From a virus (lineage: Duplodnaviria; Caudoviricetes), in IMG/VR virus record IMGVR_UViG_3300031867_000013, positions 1-64,000 of that record: a stretch of 64,000 nucleotides of DNA, one strand, 5' to 3'. A program made the position numbers and the translations under genes. Shown piece after piece: positions 7,913 through 50,386 of the stretch (within the stretch, counting starts at the first letter, position 1; every line of letters starts with the position of its first letter). The notes beneath the pieces are model-generated. The model was given only the letters and a program-made list of their open reading frames with translations. It did not search any database and was not told the DNA's origin.

Positions 7913-10900
7913 TTATACCATCATATATTTCTGCCAATTTGTTCCATTATACTGCCAATATTCACTATAATTATCCACTAATTGTGTAAAATCAGTTCTA
8001 AATATATAATATGGATTGATTGTAAACGGATAAAGTATAGCATTATTATCTTCATCTTTTCCAATGATTCTATAAGCCATATTTGACAACCTATATATAT
8101 TACCGTCTTGACATAAAATATCATTTACAGAAGAAGTACCTGTTACCTGTATTCCTTCTATTAATATTGGACACTCTGTATACAATAAAGCTATTTGTGG
8201 ACTTACAGTTGTTGCTGAAACTACTATTGTACTGCTTGTTGATAATACATAACTATCTGCTAATGTTTGCGCTTCTGCTTGGTCTGCTACTACACCTACA
8301 AATCTTGGAGTTCTCCAATCTATTGTTTTCATATAACTAGAATAAGAATATAATTCTTTCATACTATCATATGTCATTACTTCAATAGTTACTGTATTTT
8401 GATATTTTATTTTATCCCCCATTAATTCGCAAAAACTAGACCAAGTTAAGGAATCTTCTTCAACATTTTTTCGTACTTCAATATCATCAATAATTTCTGT
8501 ATAAGTAGCTAATGTTCTAAATTCTCCATCTATACCACTAGAAGAAGTTTTTATTACATTATATGTAGATTCGGCAACTTTAACATCAGTATCTCTATCA
8601 ACTTGACTTATTATTCCATAATTATTAAATTTATTTCTACCAATAAACTTAAATAACAAATCTCCACTAAAAATAGTAGATGTTGTATAATCATATTGAT
8701 AAATTGTATCTTCTCCAATATCTACTCCATATTGTAAATTTGCCATTACACTTAAACGCTCTGAACGTCTTGACGTAGTATATTCTTCTACTAAAGATAA
8801 ATCAAATGGCTGTGACAAAGTTCTTGTTTCTGTTCTTAATTCCAACTTCTCTGTTACAGGAGAATCATTTTCCATAGCTACAGCATTTCCTGTTCCCGCT
8901 ATATTTTGTCTATTTTCTACAAAAAATATTATTGATTCTGCTGTATGTTGCTCTGGTAATGTATCAAAAATTCCCCTTATTACACCTTTTACCCTATAAT
9001 GTCCATTTGGTAATTTTTCTATTGTCTCATAACTCATATATTCATTATCAATAAATAATAAATTCAATCCGCTTGTTGATGTATAAGTAGTTGGATAATT
9101 TATTATTTTTTCTATTTTTTGTTCAATTAAATCCTCACCATTATTACCTAATATACTAAATTCAAAACCTTCTGCATCCACATCAAAACCTTTAAGATAC
9201 CCATAAGTTAATCTTCCTACTGTACTCCACGCCATTGATTGAGATGTTTTCATATAATTACCATGTACCTGTCTCCAAACATCCCAATAAACATCATGCC
9301 CATTAGGTTGTGCCGCATATGCATAAATATAAGTATTCAAACTTCTAGAAATTTCATAAGGTTCTTCCTCATATATATATCTGCCTATATTAGTAGGTTG
9401 TTCCTCTGGGTCTGTCCATTGAGGGCTTTCTGGTGTATCAAAATCTAATTTATCAAATCCAAATACATCTTCTATACCAGTTATACTTATTTTACCATCT
9501 GTTAAATTAGCATAATCTATATCTGTTACTCTATATACCACTTGTTTTAAACCATATGGTTCCCAGCTTACTTTTATTGGGTCTCCTATTGTTACATCAT
9601 ACGCATATCTATTTGTAACTAAATTTATTGCACTTAATGGATAACCATTCGCTAACTGATTCATTTGTGCTAACCATTTAGCATTTGCTGTTGTTGTAAA
9701 ATAATCACCATCTACAGATTTAGAAGTATAAAATCCGGTTATCAATCTATTAGATATATCTGTAAAAGTAAACTGTCCTGTATCATATTTATTTGAAGCA
9801 TCTGTAAATGATACTTCTACCGCACTTGTTGTTTCACTCCAATCAAGTCTACTGAACTCACAACTTTCTGTATTAGATACATCAAATTTCTTAATATTAT
9901 TTACATCATAATCATTTCTAATAAGTTTAAATGTTAATTTACCTGTTTTCGGGTCATCATACTTAACACCATTAACATGATTTAATATTTTAGTTATATA
10001 ATCATTTGATTGCGCTGTTCTATTTATTAAACATGATACTCCTAACTTTTCTTGTTCACATACTACACCTAAATCAACTAAACTATTAACATCTATCTTG
10101 CTTTCTAGATAACCACAGCCCCAATAGGTATTTGTTAATATTTCATAGATTGCTTCTGATGGGTTTAAATCATCATCTAATCTACCTAAATGCCAAACCC
10201 CGTATTGACACATAGATTCTAATGTAGATAAAACCATACCAAAATTTTCTCTATTTGTTGGTGGATAATAATCATATGCGGCAACAGCTTTATTATATAA
10301 ATCATCTAATAAGGATTGTGGTGGAAAATCTCTTTCATATAATATCCAATTTTTATCGCTAAATGAATATGGACTTGTGTGGTCTTTTTTACACGTATAT
10401 ACTTGTCCAATATGTAATACAACATTACCACACACATAATTTGTATTTTCTTGCCACCCAACATAAGTTGCTTGTTCCAATTTATTCCAATTATCAATAT
10501 CATCTAAAAAAGAATCAGACGATGTATGACTAACAATACACGCAAATCTACTAGAATCATACATAACAATATCCCCAACAGAATAAACAACATTAGAAGC
10601 CCAATCATTAACCTCACTTATATATTCATCCCAAGAAGGAATTATTAAAAATTCATTAGCCTTATCTATATAATTATCATATGATACTTGTAAATCACTC
10701 ATTTTTTCATCCATATATGATTGAACAGATGGGTCTTGTGCACTAATAAAATTATTAATTTTAGTAAATTCTTCTCCTAGTTTTGTTATAAATTTTTCTA
10801 ATAATATTGTTATCCAATATTTTCCTATCCTTGCAGGATAATTTACTACTTCAAACCACATTTCGGGTATTGTAGCTTGTTTTCCTATATATGCCCCACC

Positions 10901-40851: not shown

Positions 40852-42198
40852 TTATATACCTATATTCTTTGCGGCATCTTTTATCTTATTCTTATCTTTT
40901 AATTTCTCTACTGCATACCTCATGCTGTCCACACAATGGTCATTACGTTTGAGAGGACGGTCAATACCTCTTTCTTGTGCTTTATCGTCCCATACATATG
41001 TATTTATTTCTCTTAATAAATTTTTACATTCTGTAGATACTTTTAATTTTCCTTCTGCTATATATGTAGCTACATCTCTTATACCATCTATAACAGAGTT
41101 TCTTGCATCTTTTGTTCTCATACCACTTCTATGTAATTGAACTTTGAAACTTGCCGCCGCAGGGTCTACAACAATATCCATTTTATTAAATGGTATTTGC
41201 GTATATTCATATGTTTGACCTAAAAACTCTACCATATCATCTGCAAATTCTAAATCAGTTTTTTGTGTATCATAATTACCGTGTTCATTCGCTTCTGCAC
41301 GACCTTCAAAATAATATTCTCTAACACAATATAATATTCCATTAAATGTTTTCATCCACAACGTAAAAACTGTAGCATTTCCTGTACCATAGTCTACACC
41401 AACGCACCATTTTATTGCTTCATCATAAGGAACTTCATCGGGTCTTACTACATTCTTCTCATTTGTAAACATATCATATATTCTACCCTCTGCTGATACC
41501 CATTTCCCTAAAATATATCTTGAATAGAATACACCACCATACATTTTCTTATATCGCTCTTTTACTTTATCAGATAATGATAAATTATCATCCATAGTAA
41601 AATGAACATATAAACCATTTTTATTATCTAATTGTTGCAATACATTTTTATAAAACCAATGATAAGGCCCAGCAGGATTACAATTACAAAAACATTTTGC
41701 ACCCTCTACCGATAATCTTGCAGTTGCTTGATTAAAAAATGATTCTGGTAATAGAGCGATTTCGTCCATTAGAACCGAGCAGAGTGTCATGCCCTGTATA
41801 TAATCTTGTGAAGATTCATCTTTAGCACCTGCGATGTATATATAATTAGTTATATCACCTTTAGAAACTTCTATATAATTTTCGCTACGATGTTCTAAAC
41901 AATTATATCCTAATGTTAATAACATTTGCTTTAATGGATTTAATACATTTCTTCTAAATGTTCCTACTGATTTTCCTGCCATTAATGCGTCTTGTTGATT
42001 AAAATTATTCATTACAAACATTACAAAAGATAATGCCATGCAAATTGTCTTACCAGACCTTATTGCACCGTCAGCAATAACCATAAACTTATCTTTTACA
42101 GGACTATCTTTGTGCCACCAATTTAATATCTTTTTCTGTTTTTCCGAAAAAGGTTGAAATTGAAAACCTTTTACCTTCCTTTTTTTACTATTTGCCAC
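40852..42198 (-). CDS. terL: Terminase large subunit (PBSX-like)
   Basis: Walker A DGAIRSGKT, Walker B LMDE, CNP, VDYG, NDHCVDSMRY. Confidence 0.95.
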   Translation of the reverse strand: MANSKKRKVKGFQFQPFSEKQKKILNWWHKDSPVKDKFMVIADGAIRSGKTICMALSFVMFVMNNFNQQDALMAGKSVGTFRRNVLNPLKQMLLTLGYNCLEHRSENYIEVSKGDITNYIYIAGAKDESSQDYIQGMTLCSVLMDEIALLPESFFNQATARLSVEGAKCFCNCNPAGPYHWFYKNVLQQLDNKNGLYVHFTMDDNLSLSDKVKERYKKMYGGVFYSRYILGKWVSAEGRIYDMFTNEKNVVRPDEVPYDEAIKWCVGVDYGTGNATVFTLWMKTFNGILYCVREYYFEGRAEANEHGNYDTQKTDLEFADDMVEFLGQTYEYTQIPFNKMDIVVDPAAASFKVQLHRSGMRTKDARNSVIDGIRDVATYIAEGKLKVSTECKNLLREINTYVWDDKAQERGIDRPLKRNDHCVDSMRYAVEKLKDKNKIKDAAKNIGI

Positions 42199-42214
42199 GA
42201 TATATCACACCTAA

Positions 42215-43033
42215 TTAATCATCTTCTTTTAATGTTTCATTTAAGTCTGCATTTATATCTTCATTTCCCCACGAACTCTTAGAACTTTCACCTAATGCAG
42301 AAAGTATATTACTATCAATATTTTCTTCAACTTTCTTTTGTGCTTTCCACTCAAAGAAATTCCTTATATTTTCCCACGCTTTCATCTTATCGGGTAATTG
42401 AATAGTGATACCATCTTTTCCTTGTTTAATTGAAACAATTATACTTGTATCTACTGTATCGCTATCTACTAAATGCATACGATTTACTTTCTTAAATTTT
42501 TGTTCTCCTGTATCTGGGTCAAATCTTAATGTACCATCTACATTATATTCTGGTATTTCTTCTTCACTAAATTTGATATAATCACCTATATCTGCATTTG
42601 CTATTTTTAATTGTGTTTCTATATATTTTGATGGGTCTATTTCATATCCTATTGTTAATATTTTCTTTAATTTCTTTATAGCATTTTGTATATTTGATTT
42701 ATTTAATAATCTATAACCATATAATGATGCTAACTTCTTATCCCCACCAAAAGATTTTAAGTATGCTTGCGTAGCATTTGTAGATTCTAAATAGTATAGT
42801 ACAAAATCTTGTTGTTTTGGTGTAAGACCTAATCCAACTAATTCATCTACTATTTTATCATTTACTTGATCTTTTCTTATATTTTCTGACCTTCTAAAAT
42901 CATCGTATATATCTTCTACGTCCACATCTTCTTTTCGTGGTCTGCCACGTTTAGGCTTTATTTCTATATTCTTTTCTTCTAACTTTTCATCTATATTTTC
43001 TTTTAAATTATCTGTTAGATATGTTTCTGCCAT
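42215..43033 (-). CDS. terS: Terminase small subunit
   Basis: LTPKQQDFVLYY...NATQAY HTH; ADIGDY; DKMKA. Confidence 0.9.
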   Translation of the reverse strand: MAETYLTDNLKENIDEKLEEKNIEIKPKRGRPRKEDVDVEDIYDDFRRSENIRKDQVNDKIVDELVGLGLTPKQQDFVLYYLESTNATQAYLKSFGGDKKLASLYGYRLLNKSNIQNAIKKLKKILTIGYEIDPSKYIETQLKIANADIGDYIKFSEEEIPEYNVDGTLRFDPDTGEQKFKKVNRMHLVDSDTVDTSIIVSIKQGKDGITIQLPDKMKAWENIRNFFEWKAQKKVEENIDSNILSALGESSKSSWGNEDINADLNETLKEDD

Positions 43034-43236: not shown

Positions 43237-43311
43237 TGGCGGGAAATAAGATAATCGAAATCTTGTCTTTAGATTGACAATCTAATATTCTAACCACTGA
43301 ACTAATTTCCC
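43237..43311 (-). tRNA. tRNA-Asp(GTC)
   Basis: Cloverleaf; anticodon arm TTAGA-TTGTCAA-TCTAA; CCA end. Confidence 0.85.
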
Positions 43312-43322
43312 GTTATATACAT

Positions 43323-43394
43323 TGGATGCGGCGGCTGGTAACGCTCCAGCTTAATCTAGCCCATGAAACTAGACGGGTTCTTAACCTCACCGCG
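43323..43394 (-). tRNA. Atypical tRNA(CAT), Met/fMet-like
   Basis: CTAGT-TTCATGG-GCTAG arm; C1:A72 mismatch; non-canonical T loop AGCGTTA; CCA end. Confidence 0.65.
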
Positions 43395-43399
43395 ATTAG

Positions 43400-43645
43400 T
43401 GGGCGTATTATAAATCATAATTGTAAACTTCTTACGCCTAAAGTTTTATTTTGAATAAGAGCGCGTCTTACCGATATTGCCTTGTTCCTATTATCGCGCT
43501 GATTAATAGTCATGGAGAGAACCACTTTCGCAATTCTCCCAAGTATATATCCGCAAATATATACCCCAATTAATATTTTAAGACGTATAACACACAAACT
43601 TCTGTCTTTCTGCCTTTCTGAATATATTTAGGCTTTATACACCCA
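43400..43645 (-). ncRNA. Unassigned ~245-nt structured RNA
   Basis: End-to-end stem TGGGTGTAT/ATACGCCCA plus several internal hairpins; lies between tRNAs; no convincing ORF. Confidence 0.55.
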
Positions 43646-43740
43646 TACTAAGCAAAGTTTTACTGATTATGCTAATATAATTGCCTAACTACTATATAGC
43701 ATTTCGTGTGAAATATTTATTTTAAGTTAAGATGTTTCTT

Positions 43741-43815
43741 TGGTAGGGACGATGAGAATCGAACTCATGTTGATGGTTTATAAGACCATTATACTCACCA
43801 TTGTATTACGTCCCA
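43741..43815 (-). tRNA. tRNA-Ile(TAT)
   Basis: ATGGT-CTTATAA-ACCAT arm; T loop TTCGATT; CCA end. Confidence 0.85.
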
Positions 43816-43849
43816 ATATTATATACATATTAAATGTTTTATACATTAC

Positions 43850-43912
43850 TACAAGATGCTTTTACATTCATCTTCACCCAAGAATTTGTAAAATAATTGC
43901 TGTTAGCATCTT
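43850..43912 (-). ncRNA. ACAGCAA-stem RNA element 1
   Basis: AAGATGC-TA-ACAGCAA...GCATCTT-GTA with inner TTTTACA/TGTAAAA stem. Confidence 0.7.
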
Positions 43913-44062
43913 TATAATTTAGGGGGTAGCTAAATAAAATTACTATAAATATTTTTAAATTGGGTTCTATAGTATAATAAATCTACAATTTTAAAACAAG
44001 GTATTCACGCCAATTTTTATAGTTATTATACTATAGAACTCTATTAGATGCCTAAACTTATC

Positions 44063-44167
44063 TACAAGACACATTATAAAAACTGTCTAAAAATACTTTT
44101 GGACTTCTTAGATTTAATTTTTCTGTTATCAAATAAATTATATCAATTCATTTGCTGTTCGTGTCTT
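44063..44167 (-). ncRNA. ACAGCAA-stem RNA element 2
   Basis: AAGACAC-GA-ACAGCAA...GTGTCTT-GTA; own SigA promoter directly upstream. Confidence 0.7.
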
Positions 44168-44224
44168 TCATTGTCTGTATTATATCATATAATTTTTAAT
44201 TTGTCAACCATTTTTTTATTTTTT

Positions 44225-44309
44225 TGGTGTCGAAGGAGGGAATCGAACCCTCATGGTAAAGACCGCAGAGGCTTAAACTCTGTGCGTATGCCAATTTCGC
44301 CACTCCGAC
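44225..44309 (-). tRNA. tRNA-Leu(TAA)
   Basis: CAGAG-TTTAAGC-CTCTG arm; long variable arm; CCA end. Confidence 0.9.
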
Positions 44310-44627
44310 ATATCTTATTTACATTTGTATTATACCACACGAATTTTAATTTGTCAATACTTTTTTCTTTTTCTATATGCGCCCCATCCACGCACATAAT
44401 ACACAGCCCCATTAAACTTTGCTATGCTCCCTTTGAGGTTATCCGTGTGGCTACGGTTTAGGATATTTATAATATAGCACACAATTCTAATTTTGTCAAC
44501 TACTTTTTAAATATTTTTCAAAAAGAAAAGCGGGAAGAACCACCAACCCGCTTTCTTTCTTGATTTAGACAAGTTATGTCTGCAATCAACACTCTATTTT
44601 GTATTATACCACAATTTTTATAATTTG

Positions 44628-46412
44628 TCAAATAAATAATGCGTCAATTTGTGCTTTTGTTGCAATAATTGAACCGCCTATTATATCCCATTTTTCTTTT
44701 TCTGTATCTGTAAAAGTTGATTCTGATGTATGTGCTAATTTACATTTATATATAAATTTATCATGCACAACTACTGTATCTAATTGATAATATGTACTTG
44801 CTTGCCAATTCTTTAAGTCACTAAATACTAAATCCCAATTTCCTATATCTGTTTCAAAACTAATATTAGAACTTGTGTGTGAATTATTGCACCTATATAA
44901 ACTATTTGCATAATTTACTACTTGATTGGTTTTATATTCTGTATTTATAGCCCAATCTTCTAATACTAATACAGATTCAGAACCTAATTCATTCCATTTA
45001 GATATATCAAAATTTACCCCGCTTGTATGTGCTGTTTTACACTCATATAAGCAATCATCATATATTACTATTTGATATACTTCATATTGAGTATTTGCCG
45101 CCCAATGTGCCATTTTATTTCCATCATATATTGTAGTTACGTGCTTTGTCCCATCGGGGTCTGTAAATGTTATTTTATGTTGACCTACTACTGTTTCATC
45201 TATAGTAGTTGTTGGGGATTTACCATCTACACCATCATTTATTGTTACAGTTTGTGTTCCATTCTTATCTGTAATACTTAATGTAGAATATTTTGCTCCT
45301 GCGGATTTTGTTAAATTTACAGTAGGACTATAACCATCTGCACCATTAGATATAACTGTTGTAGAAGTTCCTGCCGCCGAAACAATAGTAACTGTATGTG
45401 TACCATTTGGATTATCTACTACTGTTATTGAAGGGCTTACTCCATTTTCTCCTTTATCACCTTTATCACCTTTATCGCCCTTCATACCAATTATCTTACC
45501 GCAATTTTGCCATTCATATTGTTGTGTACTTGTATTTTCTAACCACATATATAAATATGGCACTTCTTCATCTAATGGGTCTCCAACTAAATAAGCATCA
45601 CCTACAGTACCAGTTGGGTGTGCGGCTTCTAAATCTTCTAATGTTTCATATTGCGCTCTTATTGTAAAGGATTTACCATCTTCACCCTTATCGCCTTTAT
45701 CACCTTTTGCGCCATCTCTTATTTTTGCACTTGTTGTGCCATTAACATCTTGAATTGTTATTGTAGCTGTATCTCCTGTTTTAGATACACTTGCAGAAGG
45801 GCTTACACCGCTTGCTCCATTTGTTCCGTTCATTACATTAAAATCTTTTGTTCCCGATTTATCTGTAATTGAAACTTTATGACCATTAGTTATATTAGTT
45901 ATTGCTACTGTAGGACTATAACCATCTGAGCCTTTTGCTCCATTTGTACCATTATATATATTTGCTGTAGTTGTTCCATTTATATCTACTAATGTTATAG
46001 TTGCTCCACTAGCTGTTTGTGTAATTTTTGCTGTAGGAACTGCTTGAACATCTACGTTTAATTTATCGCCTTGCATTTTAAGACCGCTACCTACTTTTGC
46101 GCCACCTTTTATGTTTGCTGACATTGTTGGAAGTGTATATGGCGTACCGCCGCCACCGCCGCCACCACCCCCTTTCCCGTTTACCTTAAAAGGGACTGTT
46201 GTGAATACTGCGTCTTTATTACCCGCACTTCTTACATATACTGTACCATCAAATGCTACTATCTGATTCTCAATTAATTTTATACCTGTATTATCTTCAT
46301 TAGTTGCAGATATTTCAATAGGTACTTTACTTGTGTTTTGAATAGACCCTGTAGTTTCTTCTGGTGAAACCCAAGTTCCTGCTTTTACATTATACTTTGC
46401 CATCAATATCAT
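44628..46412 (-). CDS. Collagen-like fibre protein with C-terminal CBM5/12-like repeats
   Basis: GDKGDKG repeats, GxSPT repeats, three W..Y..C..H.S repeats. Confidence 0.75.
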   Translation of the reverse strand: MILMAKYNVKAGTWVSPEETTGSIQNTSKVPIEISATNEDNTGIKLIENQIVAFDGTVYVRSAGNKDAVFTTVPFKVNGKGGGGGGGGGTPYTLPTMSANIKGGAKVGSGLKMQGDKLNVDVQAVPTAKITQTASGATITLVDINGTTTANIYNGTNGAKGSDGYSPTVAITNITNGHKVSITDKSGTKDFNVMNGTNGASGVSPSASVSKTGDTATITIQDVNGTTSAKIRDGAKGDKGDKGEDGKSFTIRAQYETLEDLEAAHPTGTVGDAYLVGDPLDEEVPYLYMWLENTSTQQYEWQNCGKIIGMKGDKGDKGDKGENGVSPSITVVDNPNGTHTVTIVSAAGTSTTVISNGADGYSPTVNLTKSAGAKYSTLSITDKNGTQTVTINDGVDGKSPTTTIDETVVGQHKITFTDPDGTKHVTTIYDGNKMAHWAANTQYEVYQIVIYDDCLYECKTAHTSGVNFDISKWNELGSESVLVLEDWAINTEYKTNQVVNYANSLYRCNNSHTSSNISFETDIGNWDLVFSDLKNWQASTYYQLDTVVVHDKFIYKCKLAHTSESTFTDTEKEKWDIIGGSIIATKAQIDALFI

Positions 46413-46532
46413 TCCTTTCTTTTATATATGCACAAATAGGACATACATATAGTATGCCCTAATATTATTCTTATTAAATTGCTATGTTATATTTCAATAC
46501 TCCATAATTGACTATTACAATTATAGTATCTC

Positions 46533-46632
46533 GGCACAAAATGTTTCTATCATATAACATAACATAAGTGGTGGTAATCAACCCAACTTTCAGTATCATC
46601 TTTAATAAAGATATGATTGCTGTAAGTGCCTT
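46533..46632 (-). ncRNA. ACAGCAA-stem RNA element 3 (downstream of Ro-like gene; shorter 3' arm)
   Basis: AAGGCAC-TT-ACAGCAA...GTGCC. Confidence 0.55.
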
Positions 46633-46687
46633 ATATATCAATGAAAAGATAGACATATATTTCTATATGCCTATCCTCATCTACATA

Positions 46688-48214
46688 TTATCCAAAAACT
46701 TTGTCTATTACTGCATATCGAGGTACATTAAGCTGTTCTACAAGAGCCTTATATGGGTCTAATTGTGAACTCATTACCATACTCATAAGGTTCTTACTAA
46801 ACCCGCTAAGAAGAACAACTCCCATTTCATTCTCTGTCAGCGGAATCGTACCTGTACGACTATTTACATTCCAAAATACTAACTTTGGAAGTTTATAACC
46901 TTTTGCCGCAAACCTATTACGTATTGTTTCAAACAATGCTTCATTTACTGTTGGTGTTCTTTCTCCCCAAAAAGAATTACCATTAGCCACTCCGTCAAAT
47001 TCACAATCCGTGATGATAAGCACTGTATTAGGCATTTCGTCCTGCGACATATGATTCTTTACTGCTGTATCAAGAATCAAATCAAATGTTGCTTCGATAT
47101 TTGTATTAGAGCAATCATTATATTTATGCATAATATTAAGATTACCAAATAAGGTATCACTATTTACAGTTACCATTTGTGGCTTACTGCTAAATGTAAT
47201 AAACTTATTCTTAAATTCTCCACTATTATTTTGAGCGCAATATAATGAAATTGCACTTGCTACATCTAATGCAGAAACATTACTATTACCAATAGTAACT
47301 GTCATAGAACCACTACCATCACGTACAACAAGTGTATTTTTGAAACCTTCTACCTTGTCTTGTGCGTTCCATAATGCTTCTAGTGTTTCATCGACACCAT
47401 TAAACCGACCATAGTTAAATGCACCATACTTATGCACAATATCATGTAAAAACATAGCTTGTGCATTAATCTTTGTTTCACCATTTTTAAGTGATTCAAG
47501 ATATTCTATACGACGCTTTTCATCGTGTTTCATAAAAGCAAAACCATAATTAAGATTTGCCTTTGATGGAACAGCACTATATTCAATATCGTTCCACTCA
47601 TTTGCAGACATTTTACGTTCTACAATATCAATATGCTTACGTAACTTGCTAAGAACTTTACGATATTCCTTTGAACTAAATTCAAACCATTTCTTAATGA
47701 TATGACCGCGCTTAACTGTTTCTGCACTTGACGCATTAACAGATGGCATCCACTTAGCCAAAAGTGAAATAGGTTTACCTTCTTTATAGTTCTTCATATC
47801 GTCAATAAATTGTCCGATTACACGACTACGAATTGCAAGTTGTACTTTCTTGCTCTTTGTATTAAAATAAATATCAAGAATATCATCCCAACGACCATAT
47901 TCTGCAATATCCACTTCATTAATTAGCTTTACTGCAATATCTTCGTGTGCCTTTGCAAGATAAACCATAAATTCTCTAAATGATTTACGTTCACCTACAC
48001 CACCACGAACATCACGCAAAAATAGAAGCCATTTTAAAGTAAGCACTTTATCTTCATTAAGTGCTTCTTCAAATAATGCAGTATCTACTTCTGTACGGAA
48101 AGAAGGAATTGCAAAATTAAGGTCTACAATCTTATGACCTTCTGTAGCAAAACCTACTGCACCATTTTCTGTTAGCTTCTTCTCATTCTTCTCCATTGCT
48201 TTGATAAAACTCAT
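46688..48214 (-). CDS. DUF2828-type Ro60/TROVE-like protein with C-terminal vWA domain
   Basis: TENGA, LRDVRGGVGER, EYGRWDD, LLAKWMPS, VPSKA; MIDAS DGSGSM; ITDCEFD; FWNV. Confidence 0.85.
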   Translation of the reverse strand: MSFIKAMEKNEKKLTENGAVGFATEGHKIVDLNFAIPSFRTEVDTALFEEALNEDKVLTLKWLLFLRDVRGGVGERKSFREFMVYLAKAHEDIAVKLINEVDIAEYGRWDDILDIYFNTKSKKVQLAIRSRVIGQFIDDMKNYKEGKPISLLAKWMPSVNASSAETVKRGHIIKKWFEFSSKEYRKVLSKLRKHIDIVERKMSANEWNDIEYSAVPSKANLNYGFAFMKHDEKRRIEYLESLKNGETKINAQAMFLHDIVHKYGAFNYGRFNGVDETLEALWNAQDKVEGFKNTLVVRDGSGSMTVTIGNSNVSALDVASAISLYCAQNNSGEFKNKFITFSSKPQMVTVNSDTLFGNLNIMHKYNDCSNTNIEATFDLILDTAVKNHMSQDEMPNTVLIITDCEFDGVANGNSFWGERTPTVNEALFETIRNRFAAKGYKLPKLVFWNVNSRTGTIPLTENEMGVVLLSGFSKNLMSMVMSSQLDPYKALVEQLNVPRYAVIDKVFG

Positions 48215-48227
48215 TTTTAATCATCCT

Positions 48228-48319
48228 TTCAAGTTGCCTTTTATTTTTTAACCCTATAAGGGTACGATTAACGCGATGTAATCCAAATTAAATAAAAACT
48301 ATTTTGCTGTATGCAACTT
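48228..48319 (-). ncRNA. ACAGCAA-stem RNA element 4 in 5' UTR of Ro-like gene
   Basis: AAGTTGC-AT-ACAGCAA...GCAACTT-GAA directly followed by SD AAGGATGA and ATG. Confidence 0.7.
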
Positions 48320-48329
48320 TATATTTTAT

Positions 48330-48358
48330 ATTATATCATATTTTTTATATTTTGTCAA
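48330..48358 (-). promoter_or_regulatory. SigA/sigma70 promoter of Ro-like gene
   Basis: TTGACA-N17-TATAAT with extended TG. Confidence 0.8.
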
Positions 48359-48377
48359 TATAAATTTTTAATATTTT

Positions 48378-48451
48378 TGGAGCGATTAAGGAGATTTGAA
48401 CTCCTACCGACTACTTGGAAGGAAGTCATGCTACCATTACACTATAACCAC
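48378..48451 (-). tRNA. tRNA-Gly(TCC)
   Basis: Loop CTTCCAA; T arm AGGAG-TTCAAAT-CTCCT; U73; CCA end. Confidence 0.85.
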
Positions 48452-48460
48452 ATATAAATT

Positions 48461-48562
48461 TACAAGCCGCCACAAGACGTCGGGTCAGATACAGGATTCT
48501 AACCTGTCTTAATACACATCTGTAAATCCGACAATTATCTTCTTTATTGCTGTTAGTGACTT
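48461..48562 (-). ncRNA. ACAGCAA-stem RNA element 5 with T-arm mimic
   Basis: AAGTCAC-TA-ACAGCAA...GCGGCTT-GTA (one mismatch); internal ACAGG-TTAGAAT-CCTGT. Confidence 0.65.
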
Positions 48563-48605
48563 TATACTGCGAAAGGAGGACTCTCACATTGAAAATACTA
48601 TTTTA

Positions 48606-48727
48606 TACAAGACACATCTCTTTTTAATGCGACCGCACACCGAACAGCATACAACTGTGTTGGGAGTTTAACCCAATCCTTATTTTTTGCAGAAATAATT
48701 AAGAAAAATAATTGCTGTTTGTGTCTT
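48606..48727 (-). ncRNA. ACAGCAA-stem RNA element 6 with Cys-like anticodon arm and T arm
   Basis: AAGACAC-AA-ACAGCAA...GTGTCTT-GTA; internal TTATTT-CTGCAAA-AAATAA and TTGGG-TTAAACT-CCCAA. Confidence 0.7.
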
Positions 48728-48748
48728 TTTTAAATTATTTACATATTT

Positions 48749-48824
48749 TGGTGACGAATCGGGGAATCGAACCCACGCTCTAGGGATTGAAAGCCCCTCG
48801 TCCTAACCGCTAGACTAATTCGTC
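48749..48824 (-). tRNA. tRNA-Glu(TTC)
   Basis: AGGGG-CTTTCAA-TCCCT arm; CCA end. Confidence 0.9.
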
Positions 48825-48830
48825 ATATTA

Positions 48831-48903
48831 TACAAGATGCTAAATGATAAGTAAAATAAAATATGCGCTTTATATACTTGAAAATAATTGCTGTTCGCAT
48901 CTT
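48831..48903 (-). ncRNA. ACAGCAA-stem RNA element 7
   Basis: AAGATGC-GA-ACAGCAA...GCATCTT-GTA; promoter 48911-48939 places the start site at its 5' end. Confidence 0.7.
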
Positions 48904-48948
48904 TTTCTGTATTATAACATATAAAATTTAATTTGTCAATACTTTTTT

Positions 48949-49164
48949 TTAATTTTTTCTTGGTAATCCTAATCTTTTTGCCAAACTATTTGCAAATACA
49001 AGAATATCTAAATTAAATTCATTTGCAATATTACCAATTAAAATAAATACTTGCAAAATAAGTTGAATTGGAACAAAAATTATAAACAATAAACAAAACT
49101 GTAAAAATTGTGTTATTGTCATTTCATAAATATCATATACTATTTTCATCTTTTTGTTCACCAT
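48949..49164 (-). CDS. Small membrane protein (paralogue of 49133..49357)
   Basis: YDI..MTI.QFL.F.L repeated in both; one hydrophobic helix. Confidence 0.55.
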   Translation of the reverse strand: MVNKKMKIVYDIYEMTITQFLQFCLLFIIFVPIQLILQVFILIGNIANEFNLDILVFANSLAKRLGLPRKN

Positions 49165-49357
49165 CTTCTTTTACAGGAAAATTCCATTTTTCTGCAAGTT
49201 CAAAGACATAATTCTTGACAATTTCATCTAATTCTCCCATCTTTGCCCCAACAAAAACAAAAACAGAAAGAAATAGATGAATAGGTACTCCTACAATACT
49301 AAGAAGTAGAAATTCTAAAAATTGTACTATTGTCATTTTCTTTATATCGTATTTCAT
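49133..49357 (-). CDS. Small membrane protein
   Basis: RBS GGTGGTG; hydrophobic segment. Confidence 0.6.
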   Translation of the reverse strand: MKYDIKKMTIVQFLEFLLLSIVGVPIHLFLSVFVFVGAKMGELDEIVKNYVFELAEKWNFPVKEDGEQKDENSI

Positions 49358-49393
49358 GTATTTTCACCACCTATAATGTTTTATATATATTAT

Positions 49394-49468
49394 TGGTGGG
49401 CTTATCAGAAGTTGAATCTGAACTAGAAATTTAGAAGATTTCTGTGCTGTCCGTTACACTATAAGCCA
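49394..49468 (-). tRNA. tRNA-Arg(TCT)
   Basis: GAAAT-CTTCTAA-ATTTC arm; CCA end; U1:C72 mismatch. Confidence 0.8.
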
Positions 49469-49478
49469 ATTATATTTC

Positions 49479-49794
49479 TGGTGGACTAGACGGAGGCGAA
49501 TCCGTGTCCGAAATTACTACATTTCAAAGAACTATCACAATAGCTATATTAACTGATAGCAACAGTAGTAGAAAAGGAGATTTTATTATGAAAAACTTTG
49601 TTGTATTTATTTAATATTTTTCTGCATTGACCTACAACATAGTATTACAGAAAAAGAAACTGATAGCAACTTATGCCGCTACAGCTTCATATTCAAAAGA
49701 AAAGTTGTCAGTTATTATACTGTTTAGACTTTAACGCTGTACATTCCGTGTGAACTTTGAAATTTCATAACTCCGTCGAAACATAAACTAGCCC
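49479..49794 (-). ncRNA. ssrA: tmRNA; tag (A)DNFSFEYEAVAA*
   Basis: 5' GGGCTAG..TTCGAC; acceptor GGGCTAG/CTAGTCC-ACCA with G3:U70; resume context ATAACT-GAC; tag ends in AA. Confidence 0.9.
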
Positions 49795-49807
49795 ATATTA
49801 AATTTTA

Positions 49808-49881
49808 TGGCAGGAGTTGAAGGAATCGAACCCCCATAGGTAGTTCTGGAGACTACCGTATTACCATTATACGAAACTCCC
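49808..49881 (-). tRNA. tRNA-Trp(CCA)
   Basis: GTAGT-CTCCAGA-ACTAC arm; G73; CCA end. Confidence 0.9.
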
Positions 49882-49887
49882 ATTTAT

Positions 49888-50129
49888 GCGCCTTTATAGA
49901 CCCCTCCTGTCTAATGCCGCCACATAGCTTGTGATAGACCGACCCATTAAAAGAAACATAAATGTTTCTCACCTACCCGACCAAGATATATATCTTGAAG
50001 CCCTATCACTCCAATATTGTGAAAATGTATTTAGGTGCTTACCCCACACCACAGGACAAAATCAAAACTGTTTGCGCGACAACCGACAAACCCAAACAAA
50101 TATCCACATGATAGTTGTTTTCGCGCACC
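49888..50129 (-). ncRNA. Unassigned ~240-nt structured RNA
   Basis: GC-rich island between two tRNAs with multiple stems (TGCGCGA/TCGCGCA, GTGATAG/CTATCAC, CAAGAT/ATCTTG, AGAAACAT/ATGTTTCT). Confidence 0.55.
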
Positions 50130-50158
50130 TTTATATAGAAGATTGGTCTTTTAATTTT

Positions 50159-50235
50159 TGGTGGGACTAATAGGATTCTAACTTATATCTTGCGAATTAA
50201 AAGTTCGCTGTACTTAACAATTATACTATAGTCCC
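50159..50235 (-). tRNA. tRNA-Lys(TTT)
   Basis: GCGAA-CTTTTAA-TTCGC arm; variant T loop TTAGAAT; CCA end. Confidence 0.8.
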
Positions 50236-50240
50236 ATCTG

Positions 50241-50313
50241 TGCGGAAATTATGGAATTTAACCATAACCTTATATCCCATGACATATATGCTAAACATTA
50301 CACCAATTCCCGC
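50241..50313 (-). pseudogene. Degenerate tRNA-like sequence (anticodon undetermined, Pro/His-like)
   Basis: GCGGGAAT/ATTTCCGC acceptor; D- and T-like arms; 6-nt CATGGG loop; no CCA. Confidence 0.5.
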
Positions 50314-50319
50314 ATATCA

Positions 50320-50386
50320 TACAAGGCACGTTTGCTTGGATAGATTAAAAGTCTATTACATTAAAAATAATTGCTGTATGTGCCTT
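50320..50386 (-). ncRNA. ACAGCAA-stem RNA element 8 with Lys anticodon arm
   Basis: AAGGCAC-AT-ACAGCAA...GTGCCTT-GTA; internal ATAGA-CTTTTAA-TCTAT. Confidence 0.7.

Follow-up and report, generated by a model that had tools for sequence, protein, structure and literature searches.

What is the function of eight small RNA elements that surround the gene of a Ro60-like protein in a phage genome? The elements lie in the first 64 kb (64,000 nucleotides, nt; hereafter the window) of the IMG/VR record IMGVR_UViG_3300031867_000013, a member of the Caudoviricetes of 117,886 base pairs (bp) that is rated complete. They are interleaved with tRNA genes and flank a gene of the DUF2828 family. Ro60 and its Y RNAs form a classic but poorly understood RNA-surveillance particle that is also a major human autoantigen. 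The original prediction for this locus, made from the letters of the DNA, saw in the elements an analogue of Y RNAs, in which a constant protein handle carries a variable cargo. Every part of this proposal that could be computed held, with the addition that the cargo is often a tRNA part. The handle elements form a real RNA family whose stem is kept by compensatory change. In phages and in bacteria of the gut, handle RNA and DUF2828 gene co-occur reciprocally; they share a strand and in most cases stand no more than 500 nt apart. We found no published description of this variant of the Ro60/Y-RNA design. A literature search yielded no paper tying DUF2828 to Ro60 or to handle RNAs, and the full-text query 'DUF2828' returned unrelated papers.

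Eight handle RNAs and their family

The eight elements are all located on the minus strand and share the pattern AAGNNNNNNACAGCAA (AAG-N6-ACAGCAA), which is expected 0.15 times in the window from shuffles and reached eight occurrences in none of 100 shuffles. The layout of the handle comprises a 7-bp end-to-end helix, a 2-nt spacer and the single-stranded heptamer ACAGCAA. The elements stand where they had been placed originally, but the ends given then take in three nucleotides (GUA or GAA) past the stem. They are listed here together with the gene that they surround; bits and E values refer to the covariance model R1, which was trained on 54 elements of other phages and three local copies.

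50323..50386, minus strand: copy 1, 64 nt; stem AAGGCAC/GUGCCUU; 61.7 bits, E 2.6e-11; promoter at 50466-50438, 51 nt upstream
48834..48903, minus strand: copy 2, 70 nt; stem AAGAUGC/GCAUCUU; 46.9 bits; promoter at 48939-48911, ending 7 nt before
48609..48727, minus strand: copy 3, 119 nt; stem AAGACAC/GUGUCUU; 39.2 bits, E 3e-6; outside the training set
48464..48562, minus strand: copy 4, 99 nt; stem with 6 of 7 pairs and one A.C mismatch; 26.4 bits, E 0.0022
48231..48319, minus strand: copy 5, 89 nt; stem AAGUUGC/GCAACUU; 35.5 bits; own promoter at 48358-48330
46688..48214, minus strand: gene of the Ro60-like protein, 508 amino acids, with a predicted N-terminal helical ring and a C-terminal vWA domain with an intact metal-ion-dependent adhesion site (MIDAS) motif
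46533..46632, minus strand: copy 6, about 100 nt; the weakest copy, with five pairs (GGCAC/GUGCC); 20.2 bits, E 0.055
44066..44167, minus strand: copy 7, 102 nt; stem AAGACAC/GUGUCUU; 30.2 bits, E 3e-4; own promoter at 44207-44179; fold z -3.2
43853..43912, minus strand: copy 8, 60 nt; stem AAGAUGC/GCAUCUU; 44.4 bits; fold z -2.6; 37 nt upstream of tRNA-Ile

The closing stem is a perfect 7-bp helix in six of the eight copies, where it is built from four arm sequences (AAGGCAC, AAGAUGC twice, AAGACAC twice and AAGUUGC). Minimum-free-energy folding recovers this stem in seven of the eight copies and leaves ACAGCAA mostly unpaired, which, together with the family consensus given below, bears out the originally proposed invariant, unpaired core. 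The interiors had been described as wholly different; they do differ overall, but copies 1, 2, 3 and 8 are alike directly after the core, where they continue with ACAGCAAUUAUUUU (UUAUUUU). R1 recovers all eight copies, including the five on which it was not trained (E 3e-6, 2e-5, 3e-4, 2e-3 and 0.055), and finds nothing else convincing over the 118-kb genome. A ninth match to the pattern, at 103992-104007 of the genome, lies inside a coding sequence without covariance-model support and is attributed to chance.

Perfect sigma-70 promoters end 7, 10 and 11 nt ahead of copies 2, 5 and 7, as had been noticed for several copies, and the RNAs of these three would therefore begin with the handle or shortly before it. 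The first letter of copy 2 coincides with the predicted start of transcription, and tRNA-Glu stands 9 nt after its end, while tRNA-Gly stands 12 nt after copy 4; the copies flank the Ro60-like gene on both sides and alternate with tRNAs (Lys, Glu, Gly, Leu and Ile), as first described. Copies 3, 4, 6 and 8 have no promoter and would have to be processed out of transcripts that they share with tRNAs or with the gene. The closest relation to the gene is seen for copy 5, the leader copy: its 3' arm ends 16 nt ahead of the start codon, directly against the AAAGGA ribosome-binding site. In the related locus L002 (protein 59% identical), a miniature element at 7945-8000 (plus strand) consists of UAGGCAU-UU-ACAGCAG, a 12-nt interior and GUGUCUA, and ends right at the GGAGG ribosome-binding site of the Ro60-like gene, which echoes the leader position of copy 5. 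On the other side of the gene, copy 6 is located 56 nt past the stop codon, in the 3' untranslated region, and its counterparts with (A/U)AGGCAC arms stand directly after the gene in the relatives L001 and L002. In three runs of cattle-gut RNA libraries, only 5-7% of the sampled words are present and contigs touch parts of copies 1, 2, 4, 5 and 7, of the gene and of the transfer-messenger RNA (tmRNA) of the island; as these contigs come from relatives, may represent DNA and are blind to ends and strands, they allow no conclusion on discrete RNAs.

The wider family is defined by 84 phage loci (906 kb) that were collected by protein homology alone, at 35-94% identity. The count of ACAGCAA in these loci is 426 on the gene strand and 68 on the other strand, and that of the reversed word 66 and 36. 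Over a distance of at most 260 nt, 200 gene-strand sites are closed by a perfect helix of 7 bp, against nine on the other strand and nine reversed controls, such that 47% of the gene-strand ACAGCAA sites bear a perfect closing stem, in contrast to 9-13% on the other strand and in the reversed controls. The arms of the relatives vary widely (AAGACAC, GGGGCAC, ACUACAC, AACACUC and others), and we conclude that the pairing is maintained by compensatory change, as the four local arm sequences had already suggested to the original prediction. Indeed, in an alignment of 146 model matches, double-sided changes are observed at all seven stem pairs and in 244 of 932 cells, compared with 60 after column shuffling and at most 53 with a slid partner; since this alignment is fitted to the structure by the model, the percentage of paired positions in it is no independent evidence.

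The consensus of 319 elements reads (A/U)AG(A/G)C(A/G)C-NN-ACAGCAA. In addition, a G follows immediately 3' of the closing arm in 81% of these 319 relatives, although it was not demanded by the scan. Arrays of 3-8 copies with differing cargos are present across the loci, and the family can be traced down to 35% protein identity.

A Ro60-shaped protein linked to the handle

By sequence, the product of 46688..48214 belongs to DUF2828 (109.4 bits, cut-off 29) and DUF7788 (141.8 bits, cut-off 27.1) of Pfam, whereas the TROVE profile gives no match to the 508-residue protein at E <= 1 and the vWA_Ro60 profile reaches only 15.1 bits, under its cut-off of 27.7. A single-sequence search of the PDB sequences returns no chain, while a profile of 83 homologues places Ro60 first, with E 0.026 and the match lying in the MIDAS region. 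The MIDAS residues (DxSxS...T...D) Asp299, Ser301, Ser303, Thr371 and Asp403 are invariant in the 83 homologues and align to the DVSASM segment of Ro60. The AlphaFold2 model computed on the 83-sequence alignment has a predicted local distance difference test score (pLDDT) of 93.5 and a predicted template-modelling score (pTM) of 0.93, and shows the helical-repeat ring closed by a C-terminal vWA domain that characterizes the Ro60/TROVE fold. In a Foldseek comparison, the twelve top PDB matches of this model are all Ro60/TROVE structures, aligned over the full length; sequence identity to Ro60 structures is 12-17%. Thus, the product has, as modelled, the shape of Ro60 but is not assigned to TROVE by sequence profiles, which agrees with the Ro60-like ring originally assumed for it. 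The DUF2828 family is large, with at least 6,371 clusters at 50% identity (E <= 0.001).

The linkage between this protein family and the handle is apparent in both directions. Starting from the protein, a strict gene-strand element is present in 69 of the 84 loci, and R1 matches at E <= 0.01 in 63 of 80 loci, where all 146 matches lie on the gene strand. Several of the loci that have no R1 match bear N-CAGCAA variants just upstream of the gene. The distance to the gene is at most 500 nt for 82 of 129 upstream copies and for 43 of 63 downstream copies, and the end of an element is at most 100 nt from the start codon in 30 of 80 loci and at most 40 nt from it in 15 of 80. For the reverse direction, IMG/VR was scanned with the RNA-only pattern AAGACAC-NN-ACAGCAA. 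The fetched stretch contains a DUF2828 gene for 17 of 41 stem-closed matches, as opposed to 2 of 73 matches that have no closing arm. When the stem-closed matches without a nearby gene are followed into their whole records, DUF2828 is found in 15 of 21, and in 13 of 14 that are at least 90% complete; the control records contain the gene in 2 of 21 cases and in none of five complete ones. The enrichment near DUF2828 homologues that the original prediction had called for is therefore seen from either side.

The same arrangement is observed in bacterial assemblies, mostly of gut Bacillota, where 83 elements lie on the gene strand, four on the opposite strand and 11 arise in the controls, and where 44 of 80 loci carry an element. 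In Veillonella atypica and Breznakiella homolactica, the gene and an upstream element occupy chromosomal sites amid housekeeping genes. Four carriers are available in culture: V. atypica ATCC 17744, V. caviae DSM 20738, V. rogosae JCM 15642 and B. homolactica RmG30. In V. caviae, too, an element is located immediately ahead of the chromosomal gene.

Cargo, known relatives and competing explanations

The interiors of the handle RNAs are rich in tRNA parts. An anticodon-type hairpin, with five base pairs and a 7-nt loop of the form Y-U-NNN-R-N, is found in 99 of 258 distinct elements, compared with 9.3 +/- 2.9 in shuffled interiors, and a T-loop-like hairpin in 45 of 258, compared with 2.2 in shuffles. 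The commonest anticodon-type loop is CUUUUAA (Lys UUU), followed by Asn GUU and others. In the window, the interior of copy 1 contains the hairpin AUAGA-CUUUUAA-UCUAU, a mimic of the Lys(UUU) anticodon arm, and that of copy 3 the T-arm-like hairpin UUGGG-UUAAACU-CCCAA. Copy 4 resembles the top half of a tRNA, in which a 7-bp acceptor-like stem (GUCGGAU/AUCUGAC) is combined with the T arm ACAGG-UUAGAAU-CCUGU. When copy 4 is compared with its orthologue in L003, a phage with a 91% identical protein, three acceptor and three T-stem pairs are changed on both sides and are still paired. Neither Rfam nor ARAGORN calls a full tRNA-like domain in the elements.

The closest described counterparts are the bacterial Rsr-YrlA/YrlB/Yrn1 systems, which are Ro60-Y RNA systems (Chen et al. 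2014, PMC4201824), and the Ro60 of Thermus phage phiLo with Yrl1/Yrl2 (PMC12135203; PDB 9KOP, 9L5Y). The resemblance extends to partner-like RNAs beside the gene, to ends that pair next to a conserved motif while the rest is variable, and to an occurrence in phages as well as bacteria. A candidate for the tRNA-like domain of some Y RNAs is the acceptor-like stem and T arm of copy 4, in which tRNA models recognize no full D/T-arm domain. The motif itself is distinct: canonical bacterial and phage Y RNAs have GNCGAAN0-1G (/GGUCCGA) in the 5' strand of the stem and match the Rfam YrlA model (PMC4201824, PMC12135203), whereas the handle has ACAGCAA on the 3' side of its 5' arm. Focused searches of the elements gave no match to YrlA (RF02553) or Y_RNA (RF00019), either at the gathering score or at E <= 10, and the consensus of the 319 elements contains no CGAA motif; the elements are thus no canonical Y RNAs, in line with the difference in motif noted in the original prediction. 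Further differences are that arrays here reach eight copies, where the Ro60 systems have one or two RNAs, and that, unlike YrlA, the cargo is often a bare anticodon arm and this phage genome has no RtcB.

The original prediction did not recognize the elements as a named family. This stands insofar as no Rfam family reaches its threshold on the handle RNAs, but not insofar as the handle is the hallmark of the Class I RNAs of Dictyostelium. In the curated D. discoideum Class I RNAs, ACAGCAA is present in 33 of 37, typically as GUUGAC-CUU-ACAGCAA...GUCAAC-UG, where the complementary 3' arm closes the stem. Both kinds of RNA thus have an end-to-end terminal stem, ACAGCAA at nucleotides 10-16 in the same register, a similar continuation past the core (AUCUUA and UUUUA), a variable interior of comparable size (42-65 nt there, with a median of 69 nt here) and many gene copies per genome. 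The Class I RNAs are 42-65 nt long, a range that here includes only copies 1 (64 nt) and 8 (60 nt), the others being 70-119 nt; they are eukaryotic and driven by Dictyostelium upstream sequence element (DUSE) promoters, in contrast to the bacterial sigma-70-type promoters of the window, and they have no described tRNA-like cargo. According to Kjellin et al. 2021 (PMC7919456), Class I RNAs (RF01414) occur in Dictyostelia alone. On the eight copies, RF01414 scores at best 13.9 bits (copy 6) and 9.9 bits (copy 8) against a cut-off of 41.5, which is at noise level, and sub-threshold matches also appear in 8 of 14 control genomes; the handle RNAs are therefore not Class I members by the Rfam criterion. 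In a motif search of partial proteome supplements of Dictyostelium, an unrelated vWA protein was the only find, and an Atlas search for DUF2828 gave viral and bacterial clusters only, among the matches listed. We note that a giant-virus metagenome-assembled contig carries, at 157-714 on the minus strand, three tandem short handle RNAs with interiors of 27-28 nt, which have the size of Class I RNAs.

The setting also recalls the conflict between phages and hosts over tRNAs. Phage tRNAs replace host tRNAs that are cut by anticodon nucleases, and T4 Pnk/Rnl repairs the tRNA-Lys cleaved by PrrC, the Lys-UUU tRNA being a target of PrrC and RloC. Like these systems, the handle RNAs reside within a tRNA/tmRNA island and many contain anticodon loops, of which Lys-UUU is the commonest. 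Unlike phage tRNAs, they form no cloverleaf, are not called as tRNAs by ARAGORN or Rfam, and carry a dedicated handle that is linked to a Ro60-like protein.

We consider it probable that the handle RNAs and the Ro60-shaped protein form Y-RNA-like particles whose variable modules are shown to tRNA-recognizing enzymes. The RNAs would be made from their own sigma-70 promoters (copies 1, 2, 5 and 7) or cut from tRNA co-transcripts (copies 3, 4, 6 and 8); the DUF2828 protein would grip the handle, and the interior would be displayed as cargo, often in the form of an anticodon arm, a T arm or an acceptor/T top half. With tRNA parts displayed in this way, we infer that the particles engage enzymes that act on tRNA. 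The role that we favour for them during infection is that of decoys or sponges, which would draw off anticodon nucleases of the host and further defences directed at tRNA, with the RNA protected from decay by the ring. In addition, the position of copy 5 at the ribosome-binding site suggests autoregulation, and could let the protein repress its own translation.

Several observations weigh against such particles, or against the role proposed for them. The protein has no significant TROVE sequence match and the RNAs do not have the Ro-binding motif of known Y RNAs, and the binding mode of Ro60 is thus not transferable to the DUF2828 protein. At E <= 0.01, R1 finds no match in 17 of the 80 protein-selected loci, some of which have CAGCAA variants, and one complete 53-kb phage record contains a stem-closed element and no DUF2828 gene. 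The co-occurrence could also stem from joint inheritance inside phage tRNA islands. As for the cargo, copies 2, 5, 6, 7 and 8 have no recognizable tRNA part. The decoy role is suggested, by inference only, from the Lys-UUU and other anticodon loops and from the tRNA-island setting; the phage genome encodes no RtcB, and none is present within 6 kb of two of the bacterial chromosomal loci. Finally, the only proven direct binder of Dictyostelium Class I RNAs is Rnp1A, a protein with an RNA recognition motif (RRM), which is not Ro-like (PMC7919456).

As an alternative, the RNAs of the phage may be autonomous tRNA mimics whose handle is read by another factor, such as a host RNase, an RRM/La-like protein or a processing enzyme, with DUF2828 as a mere neighbour; in Dictyostelium, an RRM protein directly binds RNAs with the same handle (PMC7919456). 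Their place in tRNA arrays, their partial co-transcription with tRNAs and the complete phage that has an element without the gene agree with this. However, the reciprocal linkage in complete records (13 of 14 against none of five) is far above what a shared island would lead one to expect, the copies crowd both sides of the gene and always lie on its strand, and the gene and its upstream element stand together amid housekeeping genes in V. atypica and B. homolactica, which makes this explanation unlikely in our view. It appears likewise improbable that the protein acts on the handle without forming a stable particle, be it at cis sites or substrates (leader, trailer or marks on tRNA precursors) or in brief chaperone or quality-control use. 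Copy 5, which touches the ribosome-binding site 16 nt before the start codon, copy 6 in the 3' untranslated region, and the loci with an element within 40 nt (15 of 80) or 100 nt (30 of 80) of the start codon would all suit such a use, but most copies are not beside a coding gene, several have strong promoters followed by tRNAs or further copies, and arrays of 3-8 differing cargos are better suited to RNAs that act in trans.

An invariant heptamer that is predicted to be unpaired and is kept from phages to amoebae would also fit a universal RNA target, such that ACAGCAA would be a seed that pairs with a conserved UUGCUGU RNA and the elements would be antisense regulators independent of the protein. 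We regard this as very improbable: no target was identified, although no systematic target search was made, and the covarying clamp helix, the conserved 3' G and the tight linkage to a single protein family would be left unexplained. Hardly credible at all is the notion that the elements are selfish or structural DNA repeats, such as miniature mobile elements or recombination sites, with no function as RNA. The clustering of several copies in one region is what such repeats would show, but compensatory change preserves the stem in spite of differing interiors, which is a constraint at the level of RNA, and the strand bias of 146 to 0, the dedicated promoters and the persistence to 35% protein identity all argue in the same direction.

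With Y-RNA-like particles as the preferred explanation, a broader picture can be drawn, albeit tentatively and with more doubt than confidence: a single ancient handle partnership may span phages, gut bacteria, giant viruses and social amoebae, in which DUF2828 would be a second, so far undescribed Ro60 branch with its own Y-like RNAs, as well as the missing partner of the Class I RNAs, and the phage particles would offer decoys in the shape of anticodon arms and tRNA top halves, blunting anticodon nucleases of the host or other defences that target tRNA. If Ro60 does have a second branch of this great size, its design of ring protein, handle RNA and exchangeable cargo is far more widespread and modular than has been recognized. 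The identical handle provides the Class I RNAs of Dictyostelium, an orphan class for 20 years, with a testable partner hypothesis and questions the published view that these RNAs are confined to dictyostelids, while the anticodon-arm and T-arm cargos connect it with the struggle between phage and host over tRNAs. The cultured Veillonella and Breznakiella strains make the system directly testable.

The island and its surroundings

The nearest DNA matches of the record are metagenomes of cattle and other animal guts, and a megablast search of the region against 50,697 GenBank phage records gave no match. The handle RNAs form part of an RNA-gene island, which is listed here with its neighbours.

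40852-43033: terminase genes
43237..50235, minus strand: RNA-gene island, in which handle RNAs are interleaved with tRNAs and the tmRNA (ARAGORN and Rfam)
44628-46412: collagen-like CFSR/CBM_5_12 fibre gene
49479-49794, minus strand: phage tmRNA (Rfam, 51.3 bits), missed by ARAGORN in the window
beyond 51.6 kb, on the strand opposite to the RNA island: PhoH/HTH early module

The island contains eight tRNAs (Asp, Ile, Leu, Gly, Glu, Arg, Trp and Lys by ARAGORN; 51-70 bits with the Rfam tRNA model) and, between 43.2 and 50.5 kb, seven perfect promoters of the form TTGACA-17-TGnTATAAT. The orthologue of the tmRNA in the relatives L003 and L004 is called by ARAGORN, with the tag peptide DNSNYDYELMAA.

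Beyond the window, at 98114-100162 on the minus strand of the full record, a gene of the RNA_ligase family (PF09414) is split by an intein with a LAGLIDADG homing endonuclease and adjoins a Toprim primase gene. A link to RNA repair through this intein-interrupted gene was considered and set aside, since its place beside the primase means that it may be a replication ligase.

Several further stretches of the island, all on the minus strand, have features of structured or small RNAs. Between copy 1 and tRNA-Lys, at 50236-50322, an unannotated tRNA-like element combines a 7-bp acceptor-like stem (GCGGGAA/UUUCCGC) with the T arm UAUGG-UUAAAUU-CCAUA and an aberrant anticodon arm with a loop of 4-6 nt; it is called neither by ARAGORN nor by the Rfam tRNA model, and one relative has 26 other letters in its place. 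The segment 43950-44045, between copies 7 and 8, forms a near-perfect long hairpin of about 23 bp (fold z -2.8). At 44520-44631, a small stand-alone transcription unit begins with a perfect promoter (44631-44603), which is followed by two hairpins; the second of these is a G+C-rich terminator with a U-tract (fold z -3.9), and the unit looks like a small RNA of about 75 nt. A further promoter (44499-44471) lies ahead of another stretch of about 100 nt that has no assignment.

Between tRNA-Lys and tRNA-Trp, about 275 nt (49882-50158) have no gene call. The 3' half of this segment has a fold z of -2.1 relative to shuffles, the part from 49900 to 50077 is covered without mismatch by an RNA-library contig at a depth of 7.4, and the whole may be another structured RNA, for which the sole Rfam hint is RAGATH-7-assoc (E 5.4). 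Between tRNA-Arg and copy 2, at 48951-49357, two adjoining small open reading frames have alike hydrophobic N-terminal halves and appear to be paralogues.

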